From NCBI RefSeq assembly GCF_041886205.1, contig NZ_CP169029.1: 64,000 bases of DNA; one strand, 5' to 3'. The position numbers and the translations under genes are program-made. The DNA comes from Escherichia coli. Lineage in GTDB: Bacteria > Pseudomonadota > Gammaproteobacteria > Enterobacterales > Enterobacteriaceae. The notes beneath the pieces were generated by a model. That model saw only the letters and a program-made list of their open reading frames with translations, ran no database searches and was not told where the DNA came from. Of the stretch, positions 1,549 to 59,917 are shown piece by piece. Within the stretch, counting starts at the first letter, position 1. Each line of letters starts with the position of its first letter.

Positions 1549-3192
1549 TTAGCGAATGTTAATCAGCGCATCAAAAATCGCGTTTGCCGTCTGCAGAACC
1601 TGCGCATTCGCCAGGTAATACTGCTGAAAACGTTGCAGATTTCCATACTCCTCATCGAGGTTGACACCGGAAATCGACTGCTGCTGATTGGAAAGCTGCG
1701 TCACCACATTACCTTGCGTGGTGCTACTGGTTTTCAACGTCGCGGTTTTATTACCGATATCACTCACTAACGAGGCATAAGCGTCGTTAAAGGATTTCGC
1801 ACCGCCCACCGTTTTACTGTTGCTTTGCAGATCCAGCAGGGCCTGACCGTTGCGGTTGTCGCTATCACCCGCATCTTCTTCGCTCGCCATCGCTATTTTC
1901 GCTTCGTCGGTGATTAATACATCCATGTTGACGATGGCGTCACTTACTGGTTTCAGCGTGAAACTGTCGTTAACGGCAGGCGTTCCTGTAAACGTCAACT
2001 CCAGACCATCAAATGCCACTTTACCGTTGGCATCCGGCGTCACCGTAAAAGTGGTATTGCTGGCAAGGCGGGTGACCTGCCACTGATTATTATCGAACGA
2101 GATTTTGTAATCAGTCGCCAGTACCGCGGAGGCATCAGTTACCGTGGCACCGATCGCAACGTCACCTTTGTTTTTCGTGTTTTGCAGAACCGCGGGCTTA
2201 CCGATAGCAAAGAAATCTTCACCAGCATCGCCGTTGGCATCAAATCCGGCTTTGTGTTGGCTGTTGAAAGCCTCGGCAAATGCCAGCGCCAGTTGTCCAA
2301 GCGTATTACGCGTCTGGTCCAGATCCTGAGAATGGAATGTCAGAATGCCGCCCAGCGACCCGGTATTCAGTAATTTCTCCGGGATCTCAATATTGCCTGC
2401 CGTCCCATCAACGTAAGCGACAGTCGTACGAGAAGGGTCGGCGCTGGAAGGAACTGCCGCCAGTTGCCGCGCCGTACTTCCCTGAACCAGTGAGTAACCA
2501 TTGGCCATCGTGATGTTATAAGTGCCGCCATCCTGAACGCTGACTTCTACACCAACAATCTGGTTTAATTCGCTCACCAGTTGATCGCGTTGATCCAGCA
2601 GATTGTTAGGTGACGCCCCTGCCCCCACGCCTGTCAGGCGGGAGATTTGATCGTTCAGGCTGGCGATTTGTTTAGCGTAATTGTTGATCTGATCAACGCT
2701 GGCACCTATCGCGATATTGACCTGTTTGTCCTGGTCGCGAAGATACTGATCGGTGGTTTTAAACTGATTCACCAACCCTTCTGATTTCCCAATCAGCGCC
2801 TGGCGCGCTGCCGGGTCTTCCGCGTTACTCACCAGCGTTTGCAGGCTGGTGAAGAAATCCTGCATCTGTGTTGCCAGCGAAGAGGTACTGGTGGAGAGCA
2901 TATTGTCGATTTTCGACATCTGCTCATAGCGGGCAGTCAGGCCGCTACTTTGCGTCTGCGCCGCACGTAACTGGTTGGTAATAAACGCATCATACTCACG
3001 CTGCACACCAGAAACGTAGACACCATTGCCAACCCAGCCGCCAGCGCCCAACGTGCTATTGGCCTGCGCCATAATAGTGGTTTGGCGGGTATATCCGGCA
3101 ACGTTATAGCTGGAGATATTATTACTTGCCGTATTTAACGCCGCCTGGGCCGCGTTCAGTCCGCTCATGGCGTTATTAATCAAGCTGGACAT
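1549..3192 (-). CDS. flgK: Flagellar hook-associated protein 1
   Basis: 547-aa ORF starting MSSLINNAMSGLNAAQAALNTASNNISSYNVAGYTRQT; conserved gene order. Confidence 0.95.
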   Translation of the reverse strand: MSSLINNAMSGLNAAQAALNTASNNISSYNVAGYTRQTTIMAQANSTLGAGGWVGNGVYVSGVQREYDAFITNQLRAAQTQSSGLTARYEQMSKIDNMLSTSTSSLATQMQDFFTSLQTLVSNAEDPAARQALIGKSEGLVNQFKTTDQYLRDQDKQVNIAIGASVDQINNYAKQIASLNDQISRLTGVGAGASPNNLLDQRDQLVSELNQIVGVEVSVQDGGTYNITMANGYSLVQGSTARQLAAVPSSADPSRTTVAYVDGTAGNIEIPEKLLNTGSLGGILTFHSQDLDQTRNTLGQLALAFAEAFNSQHKAGFDANGDAGEDFFAIGKPAVLQNTKNKGDVAIGATVTDASAVLATDYKISFDNNQWQVTRLASNTTFTVTPDANGKVAFDGLELTFTGTPAVNDSFTLKPVSDAIVNMDVLITDEAKIAMASEEDAGDSDNRNGQALLDLQSNSKTVGGAKSFNDAYASLVSDIGNKTATLKTSSTTQGNVVTQLSNQQQSISGVNLDEEYGNLQRFQQYYLANAQVLQTANAIFDALINIR

Positions 3193-3225
3193 GGAGGTTC
3201 CTTATAAGCCGTCAATTACAGAGTA

Positions 3226-3252
3226 TTATCGGCAGCGACCCGCCGGACTTGA
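3226..3252 (-). promoter_or_regulatory. Putative sigma-28 (FliA) class III promoter for flgKL
   Basis: On minus strand TCAAGTCC-N11-GCCGATAA; perfect -10 GCCGATAA, partial -35 match; lies in flgJ-flgK intergenic. Confidence 0.45.
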
Positions 3253-3257
3253 GTTAT

Positions 3258-4199
3258 TCAGAACAGATTATCAATGTTCATACTGTAGGTTTTGCTCACC
3301 TTGTCGCTTATCGATTTCATCTGCTGAATCATGTTGGTGAGTTTGCGGGCATAGTGAGGATCGGTAGCATACCCCGCGTCCTGTAGGGCCTGCGCCCCCT
3401 GCTCCGCACTCGCGGCTGTCGTCACGGCTGCGTAGCGCGGGTTACGTGTTAACAGCCCAACGTAATCCGACAATGCTTCCAGATACGAGCTGTAGACCCG
3501 AAACTTCGCTTTTACTTTCTTCGCTTCGCCATTTTCATATTCAGTCGTGGTGATTTCAGTAACTGGCCCTTTCCAGTTGCCAGAGGCTTTGACACCAAAC
3601 AGGTTATAGCTCGGCTCGCCGTTTTCGCGGCGGATTTGCCGTTGCCCCCAACCAGATTCCAGCGCCGCCTGAGCGAGGATCAAATGATGTGGCACACCGC
3701 TTTGCTGGCTTGCCAGTTGGGCGGGCAGCGAGAGTTGCGCGAGGAATGCTTTACTGTCACCCGGCAGCGAATCATCGTAGTTACGTGGCACGGCCTTTTG
3801 CACCAGCTGCGAAAGCGCCTGATTTTGATAACGCACCACGGTTTCGAGCGGGAATTTCATCGGTGCTGCTGGCGTGGACTCCTCTGGCAATGGTTGTTCT
3901 GGCGTCATCTGCTTAACCATCATCTCTGCAAGCCCCAGACCTTTGCCCGCCGTCATCTGTTGGGCAATCTGCTGGTCATACATACTGGTATACAGGCGAG
4001 TGTGCTCGCTGCTGAACAAGCCATCTTTTGGTAAAGCGTCGCGCATGCTTTTCAACATCATCTGCACGAACATCCCTTCCACCTGACGGGCCACCGGACG
4101 GATATTTGCCGCCGGATCTTCGCTCGCTTTCGCCTTTAGTTCGTTGAGTGATTGCGCATCCCAGGCCGCACTTGCCAGTAGTTTGCTGTCGCTGATCAT
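3258..4199 (-). CDS. flgJ: Flagellar peptidoglycan hydrolase (rod assembly / muramidase)
   Basis: Track ORF 3258..4229 trimmed to Met of [14 protein letters not shown]; start overlaps flgI stop by 1 nt (TGATG). Confidence 0.9.
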   Translation of the reverse strand: MISDSKLLASAAWDAQSLNELKAKASEDPAANIRPVARQVEGMFVQMMLKSMRDALPKDGLFSSEHTRLYTSMYDQQIAQQMTAGKGLGLAEMMVKQMTPEQPLPEESTPAAPMKFPLETVVRYQNQALSQLVQKAVPRNYDDSLPGDSKAFLAQLSLPAQLASQQSGVPHHLILAQAALESGWGQRQIRRENGEPSYNLFGVKASGNWKGPVTEITTTEYENGEAKKVKAKFRVYSSYLEALSDYVGLLTRNPRYAAVTTAASAEQGAQALQDAGYATDPHYARKLTNMIQQMKSISDKVSKTYSMNIDNLF

Positions 4200-18959: not shown

Positions 18960-20006
18960 ATGACTGCACCATCCCAGGTATTAAAGATCCGCCGCCCAGA
19001 CGACTGGCACCTTCACCTCCGCGATGGCGACATGTTAAAAACTGTCGTGCCGTATACCAGCGAAATTTATGGACGGGCTATCGTAATGCCCAATCTGGCT
19101 CCGCCCGTGACCACCGTTGAGGCTGCCGTGGCGTATCGCCAACGTATTCTTGACGCCGTACCTGCCGGGCACGACTTCACCCCATTGATGACCTGTTATT
19201 TAACAGATTCGCTGGATCCTAATGAGCTGGAGCGCGGATTTAACGAAGGCGTGTTCACCGCTGCAAAACTTTACCCGGCAAACGCAACCACTAACTCCAG
19301 CCACGGCGTGACGTCGATTGACGCAATCATGCCGGTACTTGAGCGCATGGAAAAAATCGGTATGCCGCTACTGGTGCATGGTGAAGTGACACATGCAGAT
19401 ATCGACATTTTTGATCGTGAAGCGCGCTTTATAGAAAGCGTGATGGAACCGCTGCGCCAGCGCCTGACTGCACTGAAAGTCGTTTTTGAACACATCACCA
19501 CCAAAGACGCAGCCGACTATGTCCGTGACGGAAATGAACGACTGGCTGCTACCATCACTCCGCAACATCTGATGTTTAACCGCAACCATATGCTGGTTGG
19601 TGGCGTGCGTCCGCACCTGTATTGTCTACCCATCCTCAAACGCAATATTCACCAACAGGCACTGCGTGAACTGGTCGCCAGCGGTTTTAATCGAGTATTC
19701 CTCGGTACGGATTCTGCGCCACATGCACGTCATCGCAAAGAGAGCACCTGCGGCTGCGCGGGCTGCTTCAACGCCCCAACCGCGCTGGGAAGTTACGCCA
19801 CCGTCTTTGAAGAGATGAATGCTCTGCAGCACTTTGAAGCATTCTGTTCTGTAAACGGCCCGCAGTTCTATGGGTTACCGGTCAACGACACATTCATCGA
19901 ACTGGTACGTGAAGAGCAACAGGTTGCTGAAAGCATCGCACTGACTGATGACACCCTGGTGCCATTCCTCGCCGGGGAAACGGTACGCTGGTCCGTTAAA
20001 CAATAA
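18960..20006 (+). CDS. pyrC: Dihydroorotase
   Basis: 348-aa ORF starting [26 protein letters not shown] (metal-binding HxH). Confidence 0.95.
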
Positions 20007-20042
20007 AAATCGTAGCTTCCTGTTGTCATTAGGTTATTTTAC

Positions 20043-20058
20043 CTGTATAAATAACCAG
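20043..20058 (+). promoter_or_regulatory. LexA (SOS) box upstream of dinI
   Basis: CTGTATAAATAACCAG, matches CTGT-N8-ACAG family. Confidence 0.75.
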
Positions 20059-20079
20059 TATATTCAACAGGGGGCTATT

Positions 20080-20325
20080 ATGCGAATTGAAGTCACCATA
20101 GCGAAAACTTCTCCATTGCCAGCTGGGGCTATTGACGCCCTGGCTGGCGAACTTTCCCGCCGTATTCAGTATGCGTTTCCTGATAATGAAGGCCACGTAT
20201 CAGTACGTTATGCCGCAGCGAATAATTTATCGGTTATTGGCGCGACAAAAGAAGATAAACAGCGCATTAGCGAAATTCTCCAGGAAACGTGGGAAAGCGC
20301 CGATGACTGGTTTGTCAGCGAATAA
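20080..20325 (+). CDS. dinI: DNA damage-inducible protein I
   Basis: 81-aa ORF starting MRIEVTIAKTSPLPAGAIDAL; ATG checked at 20080. Confidence 0.9.
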   Translation: MRIEVTIAKTSPLPAGAIDALAGELSRRIQYAFPDNEGHVSVRYAAANNLSVIGATKEDKQRISEILQETWESADDWFVSE

Positions 20326-20346
20326 TATGCAGTGATTTTTGTTTTT

Positions 20347-20372
20347 GCCGGGTCGCCCCGGCTTTTTTATTT
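20347..20372 (+). terminator. Intrinsic terminator after dinI
   Basis: GCCGGG-TCGC-CCCGGC hairpin followed by TTTTTTATTTT. Confidence 0.65.
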
Positions 20373-20614
20373 TACTTACAAATTTTGAGTACAAAATTTC
20401 TACACTTCCTCAAAATAATTGCACAATATGCTAAAAAAATATGAATGACATGCTGTTTTATTGTTCATATAAATCTTAAAAGCAGAAATTTATCTGTTCC
20501 CCCCTTTAAAAATTCGGTGAATACCCTTACTTATTGGTATACTGAAGTTGCTTCAGATAAAAACGCATTGAACCTCGAATAACGTTGTCTAGTAACACGA
20601 ATTAGGGGGCCATG

Positions 20615-20869
20615 ATGGAAAAAAATAATGAAGTCATTCAGACTCATCCGCTCGTAGGGTGGGACATCAGCACCGTTGATAGCTATGATGCGCTGATGTT
20701 GCGTTTGCACTACCAGACCCCAAATAAGTCCGAGCAGGAAGGGACTGAAGTTGGTCAGACGCTCTGGTTAACCACTGATGTTGCCAGACAATTTATTTCG
20801 ATATTAGAAGCAGGAATCGCCAAAATTGAATCCGGTGATTTCCCGGTAAACGAGTATCGGCGTCATTAA
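20615..20869 (+). CDS. bssS: Biofilm regulator BssS
   Basis: 84/85-aa ORF (MEKNNEVIQTHPLVGWDIS...). Confidence 0.85.
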   Translation: MEKNNEVIQTHPLVGWDISTVDSYDALMLRLHYQTPNKSEQEGTEVGQTLWLTTDVARQFISILEAGIAKIESGDFPVNEYRRH

Positions 20870-20983
20870 CATGACATGACCATCCACCCAAAAGGCACCT
20901 CACCGGTGCCTTTACCATTTCTGGGTTGTATATCTGCATTCAGTTAATTACTCTGCTTAAACCATGAGAGCAGAGAGAAAAAA

Positions 20984-22102
20984 ATGAAATACGATCTCAT
21001 CATTATTGGCAGCGGTTCCGTAGGCGCTGCCGCCGGGTATTATGCAACCCGCGCCGGTTTAAACGTGCTAATGACCGACGCCCATATGCCACCACATCAA
21101 CACGGCAGCCACCACGGCGATACGCGATTAATTCGCCATGCTTATGGTGAAGGCGAAAAGTATGTCCCGCTGGTCCTCCGCGCGCAAACGCTGTGGGATG
21201 AACTTTCCCGCCACAACGAAGATGATCCCATTTTTGTACGCTCTGGTGTCATTAACCTCGGCCCGGCTGACTCCGCATTTCTCGCCAACGTCGCCCACAG
21301 CGCCGAACAGTGGCAACTCAACGTTGAAAAGCTCGATGCGCAAGGGATTATGGCCCGCTGGCCAGAAATACGCGTCCCGGACAACTACATCGGCTTATTT
21401 GAAACTGATTCCGGTTTTTTGCGCAGCGAACTGGCGATTAAAACCTGGATCCAACTGGCGAAGGAAGCGGGCTGTGCGCAACTGTTCAACTGCCCGGTCA
21501 CCGCAATTCGTCATGACGATGATGGCGTAACTATTGAAACCGTTGACGGTGAGTATCAGGCGAAAAAAGCGATTGTCTGCGCGGGAACATGGGTAAAAGA
21601 CCTGCTCCCGGAGCTGCCTGTCCAGCCCGTACGTAAAGTATTTGCCTGGTATCAGGCCGATGGCCGCTATAGCGTGAAGAATAAATTCCCGGCGTTTACC
21701 GGTGAACTGCCCAATGGCGATCAATATTATGGTTTTCCGGCAGAAAACGACGCGTTGAAGATTGGCAAACATAACGGAGGCCAGGTTATCCATTCAGCGG
21801 ATGAACGTGTTCCGTTTGCGGAAGTGGTCAGCGATGGTTCGGAAGCCTTCCCGTTCTTGCGCAATGTATTGCCGGGTATCGGTTGCTGCCTGTACGGCGC
21901 TGCCTGCACCTATGATAATTCGCCTGACGAAGATTTTATTATCGATACCCTACCCGGCCACGATAATACACTGCTCATTACCGGCCTGAGTGGGCACGGT
22001 TTTAAATTTGCGTCAGTTTTAGGGGAAATAGCTGCCGATTTTGCGCAAGACAAAAAAAGCGATTTTGATTTGACGCCATTCAGGCTTTCCCGCTTCCAAT
22101 AA
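20984..22102 (+). CDS. solA: N-methyl-L-tryptophan oxidase
   Basis: 372-aa ORF with FAD-binding [14 protein letters not shown]-terminus. Confidence 0.9.
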
Positions 22103-52423: not shown

Positions 52424-55270
52424 TCAGAAGGTCACATTCAGTGTGGCCTGACCGTTATACCCTTCAGCGCTGCTGCCGCTGACGCTGTGGGCATAACCGG
52501 CCTGAACGCCCAGGGTGATATTTTCCCGGACACGGGCTTCCAGTCCGGCCTGCAGGTCCAGTGATGTGCCATTCTGTGAGGGAGAGAACGTCATCCCGCT
52601 GCCTGCAGTGGAAGTCCCCACACGCATATCTCCCCGGGAGCTGAAGGTGCGGATAACAGAAGGCTGTACCCACCAGTTCACCGGTAATTCACTCACACTG
52701 TGTTTTGCACTGTCACGCAGGGGGGCACGGGATGAGGTGCCTTCGCCAAAGGTCATATCGTTGTGGCTGCCCAGACGGAAACCGGCACGCACATGTTGTG
52801 CACTGCCATGCCCGAACTTCACATAACCGGCGTTGTCCTTACCGTCATCCAGGGAAAGTCCCTGCCAGGTATACTGTAGTTGTGGCTCCAGCATCAGGTT
52901 GTCAGTGATACTGAAGGGCAGACCGGTTTCCAGTGAACCCAGCCAGCCCCAACCCCGGGCGCGGAAGTCGTTATTGTCCGTTGACGCTTTCATGCTGTGG
53001 CGGGTTCCCAGGGCCACAATGTCAGCCCACAGTCCGGAGGCGTTGTGTATCAGATTCAGGTATCCGCCCAGGCTGCCGGCATCATCCCGGACCGTGCCGG
53101 CGCGGGAGCCGTCATCATCCTTAACATCAACGGAAGAATGGCCTGCAGCACCATACACCCCTGTCGTCAGAGACATACCGGCAACCTCTGTTCTGAGCAG
53201 GTCACCCTCCAGACGGACGAAGCCATAGCTGCCGCTGCTTTCCGGCGTGGCTCCACGGGCAATACCGCCGTTGTTATCGTGACCGAGATGACCGCCCTGA
53301 ATGCTGAGACGGACGCTGTTATTTTCACCGTTTACACCGGTCTGATGGCTGCGGGAGCCTGCCAGAATCCGGTCATAGTCCATTGCCTGTGTCAGCATGG
53401 ATGTATACAGGGGGACTTCAGCACGATAAGCATTTTCACTGCGCAGGTACCAGTCTTCATCGCTGTCACGGTTCAGGGTGTAGTTAAAGGCGCCGGCCTG
53501 AAGCGGGCGACTCAGGGCAAACGCACCTTCTTCTGTGGTGGCGCCATTCTGTGCATCCACAACCCGGATACCCTGTCCGGAGGTTGCCACCCCGAGGTTA
53601 CTGTTTCCGACATTTGTAAACGCAAGCCAGGTTTTGCCGGTTGCCTGACCACCATTAATCACCAGCTGGTCAGAGGTATTGCTGCCATCAAGGCGAACAC
53701 GCATATTGATGGTGCCACCCTGACCGGTGAGGTTACTGGTGGTCAGTTTATGGAACGTTACCGGGGAGTCGCCTTTTGCAACAGCACGGCTCAGCGCGGC
53801 ATCCGGTGTCGTCTGATTATCAAAGCGAATCTCCCCTGCGTTAACAATATCGCCGGTACTGACCACATCACCATTCAGTACCATGCTGGCACCTTTACTG
53901 AGCTGTGTTCTGCCACTCAGATTTCCCCCGGCAGCCAGCGTCAGTGTTCCACGATGTCCGACAGTGGTGTTGCCAGCCTGTCCTCCGGCATTAACCGTAA
54001 AGCTGCCGCCATTTTCCAGCAGCAGGCCGCTGGCCTGACCGGAGATACCATCAATACTGAACTTACCGCTGGCATTGGTCCCCTCAACAGTGGCACCACT
54101 GTCTGCTATCAGGGCACCACCGGATGTCATGGTGACATCTGTTGCCTTACCACCGGCAGACACTGCCAGGATACCGCCGTCATCCACCAGGGTATTCTGT
54201 GCTGAATGGCTCTCCAGTACATCCAGACGACCGCCGGATTCCAGAACAACACCGTCAGCCTTACCGTTTTCCACAGTGAAATTGCCCAGACGGTTGCTGC
54301 CGGTGACGGTTGCCGCCGTACTGGTGACCAGTGCGCCTCCCTGCTTCAGGGTGACATTCGTGGCTGTACCACCGGCGTTCACCTGCAGTTTGCCTTTCTG
54401 GTTAACGGTGGTGAAATCCGCCAGACCACCTTCCTTGACAATCTGCCAGCCGTCACTGTTTACAACCGTGTCAGAGGCTGTGCCTCCGTTGTGCACATAC
54501 TGGTAACCGCCATTCAGTGTGGTATCCAGCGCATGCCCGTGTACCGTCTGGTCGCCGCCGGCATAAACCACAGTGGTATTTGCTGTTCCTTCAACAGCCA
54601 CAATCTGACGACCATTTTTATTGATGGTGGTACGTACGGCATTTCCGCGAACAAACTGCCCGGTATCACCATTTTCTGCATCTGGTCCCCCTTCCGCGCC
54701 GGTATTCACAACCGTGTCGGTTGCCATTGCGCCGGATTTGACGGCCTGCCAGCCCTTCTCATTAATGACGGTACCCGTTGCAATCCCGCCTTCATGTACC
54801 CACTGCTCACCGCCGTTCAGAGTGGTATTCACTGCCTGCCCCTGAAGGCTCTGTCCGCCTCCGGCACTGATAACCGTGTCTGAAACGCTTCCTCCGGCAT
54901 TCACTCTCTGAAGACCACCACCGGTGACAGTAGTGTTGTTGGCGATACCGCCATTTTGTATCCATTGCCCGCCGGTATTGGCCTCGTTATCCGGCCCATA
55001 CTCCAGACCGGTACTGATGGTCATTCCGTTGGCCGTACCGAGAACAATCTGGTTGTCATGATTTGTCAGTGTTCCGCCGCTCACGGTTTCTCCCGCCTGT
55101 ACAACCGTGTCAGCAGCCAGTGCCGGGACTGATGTGACAGCAGCAAGAGACAGCGCAATCGCCACACCGGCGCGTTTTCCCCGTGAGCGGGCCAGTTCGG
55201 AGGCCACCACCAGGGTACCCGTAATGTGATTCCATACCAGCCTGTAGCTGGTGTTCAGATGTCGTTTCAT
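52424..55270 (-). CDS. flu: Antigen 43 self-associating autotransporter adhesin
   Basis: Track ORF trimmed to MKRHLNTSYRLVWNHITG (start codon checked); signal peptide, beta-helical passenger repeats, C-terminal beta-barrel ending GYNGQATLNVTF; ~948 aa, shorter than the 1039-aa K-12 form. Confidence 0.9.
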   Translation of the reverse strand: MKRHLNTSYRLVWNHITGTLVVASELARSRGKRAGVAIALSLAAVTSVPALAADTVVQAGETVSGGTLTNHDNQIVLGTANGMTISTGLEYGPDNEANTGGQWIQNGGIANNTTVTGGGLQRVNAGGSVSDTVISAGGGQSLQGQAVNTTLNGGEQWVHEGGIATGTVINEKGWQAVKSGAMATDTVVNTGAEGGPDAENGDTGQFVRGNAVRTTINKNGRQIVAVEGTANTTVVYAGGDQTVHGHALDTTLNGGYQYVHNGGTASDTVVNSDGWQIVKEGGLADFTTVNQKGKLQVNAGGTATNVTLKQGGALVTSTAATVTGSNRLGNFTVENGKADGVVLESGGRLDVLESHSAQNTLVDDGGILAVSAGGKATDVTMTSGGALIADSGATVEGTNASGKFSIDGISGQASGLLLENGGSFTVNAGGQAGNTTVGHRGTLTLAAGGNLSGRTQLSKGASMVLNGDVVSTGDIVNAGEIRFDNQTTPDAALSRAVAKGDSPVTFHKLTTSNLTGQGGTINMRVRLDGSNTSDQLVINGGQATGKTWLAFTNVGNSNLGVATSGQGIRVVDAQNGATTEEGAFALSRPLQAGAFNYTLNRDSDEDWYLRSENAYRAEVPLYTSMLTQAMDYDRILAGSRSHQTGVNGENNSVRLSIQGGHLGHDNNGGIARGATPESSGSYGFVRLEGDLLRTEVAGMSLTTGVYGAAGHSSVDVKDDDGSRAGTVRDDAGSLGGYLNLIHNASGLWADIVALGTRHSMKASTDNNDFRARGWGWLGSLETGLPFSITDNLMLEPQLQYTWQGLSLDDGKDNAGYVKFGHGSAQHVRAGFRLGSHNDMTFGEGTSSRAPLRDSAKHSVSELPVNWWVQPSVIRTFSSRGDMRVGTSTAGSGMTFSPSQNGTSLDLQAGLEARVRENITLGVQAGYAHSVSGSSAEGYNGQATLNVTF

Positions 55271-58905: not shown

Positions 58906-59917
58906 ACTAGCTCCTTTTTACCAAGCTTCAGTACTGTGTTCTCAAGATTACTCAGTGGTTTTCACACAGAGTGCACTCTCATTTTACATTTAAATGTACT
59001 TCCTAGCATCCTGCTGTTAGTGCCGGATTACAGCACTTATCAACTGTATATTTAGAAAACAAACTGCGCATAATCCTAGTGAGTTGTTATGTCCGCTCCT
59101 CGCTCAAAGCAGACCATTCGCTCAGTTAACGCATCAGTGTCGTGCTAAAAGTAGACGTGGTTAACAACAATGTGAGTTAATCAACGGAGAGCAGGTCAAC
59201 TCTAACCTGTATCAAAAAAACAAATGTGTCACAAAGATGCCGCATGCCTTAATTTGAGTATAATTGAGACGGAAGTAGACGGTTTATGGCTAAATATTGT
59301 TGATATATAGCTATTTGAAGAGTTGTAGCGCAAGTGTATAGCCCAAACTAATAACGCTACCCCTTACCTTTGACGCCTCTTATCAAAGAGCTGCGATGAT
59401 GCACAGCCCGCACGAGGCAATATTCGCACAAGAATCAGGTTCAGAAATAACCTGCTCTGGCATGGTGGGGAGAGTATCACTGATCAGGCTTTCGTTAAGA
59501 TGCGGCGGGATGAGGCCGTGTTGCGTGAGTTGCAGCAGTACAAGATCGCCCGCAGAGGGTAAGCTACAGCGCGAGATCCTAGGTTTCTATCAGGGATTCG
59601 GCAAAGCGGGCGCAGTTGTCGACCAAGGCGGTGAAATCTATAGTGGCATTATAAGGGAACGAACAATAGATCGAGTAAATCGCAGTCAGGGACAAGGATT
59701 GTAGTCTATAGAGAAGTCTCCTGTAACGGTTTTCAGGAGGCTAATTCCGACGCCTGATTTTGCAGGCGCGGAGGGAGAGGATACTGCGACCATTAATCCG
59801 CCACAAAGCATTTACGTGCATAAATCACGCAGTCAGATCCGACTCTCACTGTAGTTCTTGAACCTGATACCACATTTAGCTAATTTAGCTAACTTATCCA
59901 GTATACCAGTGGTTGCC

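Follow-up and report, generated by a model that had tools for sequence, protein, structure and literature searches.

The LexA operator of chromosomal dinI in Escherichia coli: position, overlap with the predicted promoter and conservation across Enterobacterales

Introduction

The closest described counterpart of the site considered here is the LexA operator (SOS box) of dinI in Escherichia coli K-12, for which a 25-mer, TTACCTGTATAAATAACCAGTATAT, is listed as the LexA motif (PMC3009722 Table 4), with the 16-mer CTGTATAAATAACCAG also being given for dinI in PMC2585105. Binding of LexA to the dinI operator has been demonstrated in vitro by gel shift (PMC5999292), and a heterology index of 4.8 has been published for the site (PMC11228462). 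In keeping with an earlier note on the present DNA, which had called dinI a strongly LexA-repressed SOS gene, AZT is reported to raise dinI expression 49-fold, and lexA3 to lower it 39-fold, which denotes a dependence upon LexA cleavage (PMC11228462 Table 1). The product, DinI, binds RecA filaments, which it stabilises when present at stoichiometric levels (literature; structures under PDB 7YWA), and at high levels it is described in the literature as inhibiting the UmuD-cleavage and recombinase activities of RecA.

Beyond E. coli, the chromosomal dinI box of Salmonella Typhimurium serves the same gene from the same position, lying 19 bp from the ATG, with an HI of 4.00 and a 22.8-fold induction (PMC8072944). 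The chromosomal dinI box of Klebsiella pneumoniae likewise shares gene and position with that of E. coli; ChIP places LexA at this promoter, from which it departs upon treatment with mitomycin C, and dRNA-seq maps a dinI start site that overlaps the LexA box (PMC10907235). A difference between the two organisms concerns the distal end of the gene, as the 3′ region of Klebsiella dinI also gives rise to an sRNA, DinR, which the authors regard as Klebsiella-specific (PMC10907235), whereas the 3′ UTR in the window (the whole 64-kb stretch of E. coli DNA analysed herein) is only about 40 nt long. Whether a stable dinI 3′ fragment is also released in other enterobacteria is a question that those authors do not settle (PMC10907235).

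More distant relatives are carried by prophages. The PdinI promoters of the dinI-gfoA antirepressor operons in Gifsy-1, -2 and -3 possess a LexA box at the same 19-bp offset from the dinI-like start, and transcription of these operons is described as LexA-controlled in the passage of PMC5322425 that cites Lemire et al. 2011. Phage dinI shares its transcript with an antirepressor by which prophage induction is triggered, whereas dinI in the window is monocistronic, with its own terminator directly after the gene.

Results

Position and sequence of the dinI operator

The operator of the window is the 20-mer ACCTGTATAAATAACCAGTA at 20041..20060, which is assigned to neither strand and is identified by its matrix score, its identity to K-12 and its conservation. 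At its core is the 16-mer CTGTATAAATAACCAG, found on the + strand at 20043-20058, where the earlier note had placed it, and occurring only once within the 64-kb window. Between the 20-mer and the dinI ATG (20080-20082) there are 19 bases; for the 16-mer, the 22 bp previously claimed holds when counted as an offset (20080 minus 20058), there being 21 bases in between. The entire operator sits within the 73-bp spacer between pyrC and dinI (20007-20079) and is thus outside coding sequence.

LexA operators of the Gammaproteobacteria follow the consensus TACTG(TA)5CAGTA. The half-sites of the dinI operator are CTG at 20043-45 and CAG at 20056-58, so that the dyad core CTG-N10-CAG is matched exactly, and 8 of the 10 bases between them are A or T, with a C at 20055. 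The earlier note had instead assigned the site to the CTGT-N8-ACAG family. This stands with regard to the CTG-N10-CAG core, but not for the right half-site, which reads CCAG rather than ACAG on account of a single mismatch (C for A at 20055).

Comparison with K-12 MG1655 (NC_000913.3), a check that the earlier note had proposed for the dinI promoter, reveals that the window matches base for base from 19992 to the middle of dinI, including the whole pyrC-dinI spacer, and that the published K-12 site has the same sequence, the listed 25-mer corresponding to window 20039-20063. The K-12 dinI box (b1061; ACCTGTATAAATAACCAGTA) thereby shares its sequence, spacer, distance to the ATG and flanking genes (pyrC upstream and bssS downstream) with that of the window, and neither operator nor promoter displays any difference. 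Over 411 nt, dinI departs from MG1655 at two synonymous positions, its 3′ UTR contains a 3-nt indel, and a single substitution lies further downstream; no other differences were seen. The indel (about 20339-41) falls just before the terminator stem, where positions 20336-20346 read TTTTTGTTTTT in the window and TTTTTTTT in MG1655.

The dinI gene, its neighbours and its predicted promoter

The dinI coding sequence occupies 20080..20325 on the + strand and encodes 81 aa plus a stop codon, as supported by the open reading frame listing, Pfam and PDB. Its product matches the Pfam DinI family (PF06183) with an E-value of 2.1e-29 and 102 bits (cut-off 24.2), and PDB entries 1GHH and 7YWA with an E-value of 1.3e-49 across residues 1-81 of 81. 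The start at 20080 is backed by this full-length match, and by the conservation among orthologues of both the MRIEV N-terminus and the GGGGG ribosome-binding site. A position of the operator inside the coding region, which the earlier note had named as grounds for rejection, is thus not what was found, as the site is intergenic and the start well supported. A longer open reading frame of 125 aa, beginning at 19948, was rejected as the gene; it overlaps pyrC, and orthologues, Pfam and PDB all favour the 81-aa product.

Directly upstream on the same strand lies pyrC (dihydroorotase, 348 aa; 18960-20006), and downstream is bssS (20612-20869; Pfam BssS, E = 1e-23). For 5425 of 5426 complete E. coli genomes, the RefSeq annotation has pyrC, dinI and bssS in the corresponding place. 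A strong intrinsic terminator of dinI was identified by terminator scan at 20347..20373 on the + strand, comprising the stem-loop GCCGGGTCGCCCCGGC followed by a T-run, with six G-C pairs, a 4-nt loop and the tail TTTTTTATTT. The same scan found no intrinsic terminator on the + strand in 19800-20346, the only one being that which follows dinI. The roughly 240 bp between this terminator and bssS (20369-20611) are very A/T-rich and non-coding, and have no Rfam match; a search of 19900-21000 matched no Rfam family, and hence no known sRNA or leader.

A plain count of matches along the spacer gives TTGTCA-17-TATAAA as clearly the best sigma-70 pairing for dinI. The predicted -35 hexamer, TTGTCA (20023..20028, + strand), agrees with TTGACA at 5 of 6 positions and includes a conserved TTG, and the predicted -10 hexamer, TATAAA (20046..20051, + strand), also a 5/6 match, follows 17 bp after the -35 and is located wholly within the LexA box. 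Transcription is predicted to start at 20057..20059 (+ strand), 6-8 nt after the -10 and within the right half-site, and a Shine-Dalgarno sequence, GGGGG (20070..20074, + strand), ends 5 nt before the ATG. Both this -10 and the predicted start thus fall within the operator, and the pyrC-dinI spacer has no other good sigma-70 promoter. An automated promoter scanner did not pick up any promoter on the + strand ahead of dinI, its rules demanding a T at position 6 of the -10. Two promoter-like matches on the minus strand (20086-20057 and 20029-20000), neither of which has a gene to serve, were taken as chance.

The operator scored against chance

Searches with a bare consensus are uninformative for this site. 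When up to one mismatch is allowed, CTGT-N8-ACAG is found 26 times in the window, against an expectation of 19.4 ± 4.2, and CTG-N10-CAG occurs 28 times. As the former pattern is present at chance frequency, the match to it that the earlier note had put forward is insufficient as evidence when taken alone, and both searches were dropped for being at or near the level of chance. What distinguishes the dinI site from other matches to these patterns is its A/T-rich spacer and flanks.

These features are captured by a symmetrised log-odds matrix, which was built in leave-one-out fashion from 17 of 18 E. coli LexA sites (PMC3009722 Table 4), with dinI excluded. With this matrix the dinI operator scores 21.2 bits and the runner-up position in the 64-kb window 10.9 bits, whilst 200 random Markov-1 sequences of 64 kb have a mean maximum of 11.3 bits and an overall maximum of 19.2. 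The weight-matrix scan recommended in the earlier note, for which a low score was to count against the site, hence places dinI within the range of validated E. coli operators, which span 13.4-28.6 bits and amongst which it ranks 11 of 18. The heterology index computed here for the site is 3.7, the sixth lowest of the 18 published sites. Two further positions, the runner-up at 59042-59061 (AACTGTATATTTAGAAAACA; 10.9 bits), which possesses a lone half-site, and 54200-54219 (10.8 bits), were rejected as LexA sites, both falling under the mean random maximum of 11.3 bits.

Amongst the known SOS operators of E. coli, those of lexA, yebG, cho and ruvA resemble that of dinI most closely in form, with CTG-N10-CAG, an A/T-rich spacer and scores of 20.6-21.7 bits, comparable to the 21.2 bits of dinI, but they serve different genes. 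Despite this mid-range box, dinI is among the most strongly induced SOS genes (49-fold).

Conservation across Enterobacterales

Orthologues were sought using a degenerate back-translation of the C-terminal DinI motif WESADDWF, which produced at least 120 matching stretches, 80 loci being analysed. As the motif lies approximately 250 nt from the box, the scan is unbiased with respect to the latter. Among the matches listed, pyrC is directly upstream on the same strand in 57 of the 80 analysed loci, and these span Escherichia, Citrobacter, Enterobacter, Klebsiella, Yersinia, Serratia, Pantoea, Erwinia, Pectobacterium, Dickeya and Rahnella. The pyrC-dinI adjacency, with a same-strand arrangement and a spacer of about 65-150 bp, is kept in all 57 of these Enterobacterales loci, again among the matches listed.

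Every one of the 57 pyrC-syntenic dinI orthologues analysed harbours a LexA box, with scores of 18.6-30.0 bits. The gap between box and ATG is 14-21 bp, the modal value of 19 bp being found in 31 of the 57. DinI-like genes without pyrC also possess a LexA box (17/17 among the loci analysed), as opposed to four control loci with unrelated WESADDWF matches, which do not exceed 0.1 bits. No other site of at least 18 bits was detected by matrix scan in the 680 kb of the dinI loci, and a null set of 1917 random 150-nt windows peaks at 15.2 bits. Compared with its orthologues the E. coli dinI box is rather poor: 53 of the 57 outscore it and 3 score lower, with the boxes of E. coli and E. albertii being among the weakest of those analysed.

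The motif search also yielded a 4-kb contig of Epulopiscium sp., in which the WESADDWF DNA pattern occurs three times (1976-3389) within repeated open reading frames starting MPLNEF. These were rejected as DinI; they are unrelated, have no LexA box, and look like a repeated gene family matched by chance.

For a footprint, 58 distinct orthologous sequences were aligned on the box, as defined by the best matrix match. Three conserved islands are apparent, namely the TTG of the -35, the operator and the GGGGG, with the remainder of the spacer retaining only about 0.1-0.4 bits per column. In the 58 sequences, the TTG at 20023-25 has a frequency of 0.88-0.95 and keeps a constant spacing to the box; this spacing is independent of the box anchoring, and thus supports the promoter assignment. 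Within the operator, 100 % of the 58 sequences have CTGTA and CAG, although anchoring the alignment on the box inflates the CTG and CAG columns. A second test free of this anchoring is the lack of similar matches in the rest of the loci. Box positions 6-11 display frequencies of T 1.00, A 1.00, T 0.91, A 0.98, A 0.76 and A 0.98 in the same sequences, and the GGGGG ribosome-binding site is found at 0.69-0.90 in orthologues.

Phage-borne homologues

A second set of loci comprised 80 phage homologues of DinI with approximately 50-56 % amino-acid identity, 77 of which have at least 120 nt of upstream DNA. A LexA box is present in 72 of these 77, with scores of 21.6-30 bits and 19 distinct sequences; from its end to the start codon there are 14-22 bp (mode 19). 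Of the five homologues without a box at this place, four come second in a gene pair and have one (21.6-26.8 bits) some 300 bp upstream, where it precedes the first member; for the fifth, the available upstream DNA amounts to only 137 nt. Phage boxes are near consensus, commonly TACTGTTTATTTATACAGTA at 28.4 bits, compared with the 21.2 bits of the chromosomal box in the window.

Two features of individual phage contigs are also recorded. In some (L028 and L029, about 906-1200) a dinI-like gene directly follows a gene whose product has a DinI-like ending (...DQWLVSDN), in what may be a dinI tandem; here the LexA box precedes the upstream member. In three others (L038, L041 and L058) a second, equally strong box (28.4 bits) is found at 678-697, approximately 480 bp upstream of the dinI box, where it presumably serves another SOS-controlled phage gene.

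Variation of the operator within E. coli

Variation within the species was assessed by megablast with 34-nt queries and 28-nt seeds, each seed spanning the central 22 nt. Of 5426 complete E. coli genomes, 4749 carry the reference operator (ACCTG..., exact over the central 22 nt), and an unaltered 16-mer core is present in no fewer than 5214. Three single-base alleles account for most of the remainder, such that together with the reference they cover all but about 135 of the 5426 genomes. The first is A>G at 20041 (position 1; GCCTG...), in 260 genomes. The second, C>A at 20042 (position 2; AACTG...), is present in 205, and at 25.4 bits is nearer to consensus and identical to the Citrobacter box. 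The third, A>G at 20049 (position 9), occurs in 76 and scores 19.4 bits; it also alters the -10 to TATGAA, which is thereby weakened. Five dinI-region matches in the E. coli collection are on records labelled as plasmids; these could be F-prime-like chromosomal fragments or a matter of assembly labelling.

A more drastic change is seen in strain MLI108K1 (NZ_CP116994.1; 1137-2533 of the extracted locus, L203), where an ISL3-family element of approximately 1.3 kb with an ISKox3 transposase lies within the dinI LexA box, flanked by an 8-bp target duplication, ATAAATAA (window 20047-20054). The -35 and left half-site thereby come to lie on one side of the element, with the right half-site and dinI on the other, and neither junction holds a LexA site (-8 and -4 bits). 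In effect, this is a natural knock-out of operator and promoter.

Discussion

Taken together, window 20041-20060 is almost certainly the LexA operator of chromosomal E. coli dinI, through which LexA would occlude the promoter of the gene until DNA is damaged. The earlier proposal of a LexA box controlling dinI is borne out by the matrix score, by identity to K-12, by conservation and by published LexA data. In an undamaged cell, a LexA dimer would occupy the imperfect palindrome formed by CTG (20043-45) and CAG (20056-58). Since the operator contains the -10 and the predicted start, bound LexA would be expected to exclude RNA polymerase sterically from both; for E. coli, this overlap of box and start rests on prediction together with the Klebsiella orthologue. 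Upon DNA damage, RecA filaments on single-stranded DNA would provoke self-cleavage of LexA, the operator would be vacated, and the freed promoter would yield a transcript of approximately 310 nt, running from about 20058 (the probable start) to the terminator at 20347-73. Its 81-aa product, DinI, would then bind and modulate RecA filaments.

LexA at 20041-60 might have an extra role, compatible with this one, as a roadblock to read-through from pyrC that keeps basal dinI expression low. As no intrinsic terminator separates the pyrC stop (20006) from the dinI promoter, nor is there one anywhere on the + strand in 19800-20346, pyrC transcripts may read into the LexA-occupied promoter; the maintenance of the pyrC-dinI adjacency with a short spacer in 57 Enterobacterales loci would also fit such a function. 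However, pyrC transcripts could come to an end through Rho-dependent termination or mRNA processing, the synteny may be no more than a matter of gene order, and promoter occlusion accounts in full for the strong 49-fold induction. We therefore regard this additional role as rather improbable.

Far less probable again is that the block is conserved solely as the core promoter of dinI (-10 and start), with its likeness to a LexA box being incidental and SOS induction indirect. The presence of TATAAA within the block, and of an A at position 10 in 76 % of orthologues, would fit selection on a -10 element. Such selection does not, however, account for invariant CTG and CAG triplets that are 10 bp apart and outside of the -10, nor for conservation that is dyad-symmetric; moreover, phage paralogues hold to CTG-N10-CAG whilst their central bases vary, e.g. 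TACTGTTTATTTATACAGTA. Published dependence on LexA cleavage, gel-shift binding and ChIP occupancy speak against it as well. Finally, the notion of a chance loose palindrome in A/T-rich intergenic DNA, with no regulatory role, merits almost no credence, for although the pattern itself is common (26 matches versus approximately 19 expected, and 28 of CTG-N10-CAG), the 20-mer exceeds the rest of the window by 10 bits and outscores each of the 200 random 64-kb sequences, its position is kept in 57/57 orthologues and 72/77 phage paralogues with unrelated surrounding DNA, and the dinI box is a published and experimentally studied K-12 site.

The site is thus best read as a LexA operator that would occlude the dinI promoter. 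It is already known in exactly this sequence, being a textbook site that introduces no new principle, and a canonical SOS operator was here recognised correctly from raw sequence. It can be used as a positive control for scanning this window for LexA sites, where no other site in the 64 kb reaches even chance-level significance. With regard to its natural variants, it is possible, if somewhat doubtful, that the operator alleles could measurably shift the threshold or timing of DinI induction, and hence the stability of RecA filaments and SOS mutagenesis, between E. coli lineages. More broadly, the arrangement is a rigid one, in that a box ending approximately 19 bp before the start accompanies dinI-like genes both on Enterobacterales chromosomes and in prophages.
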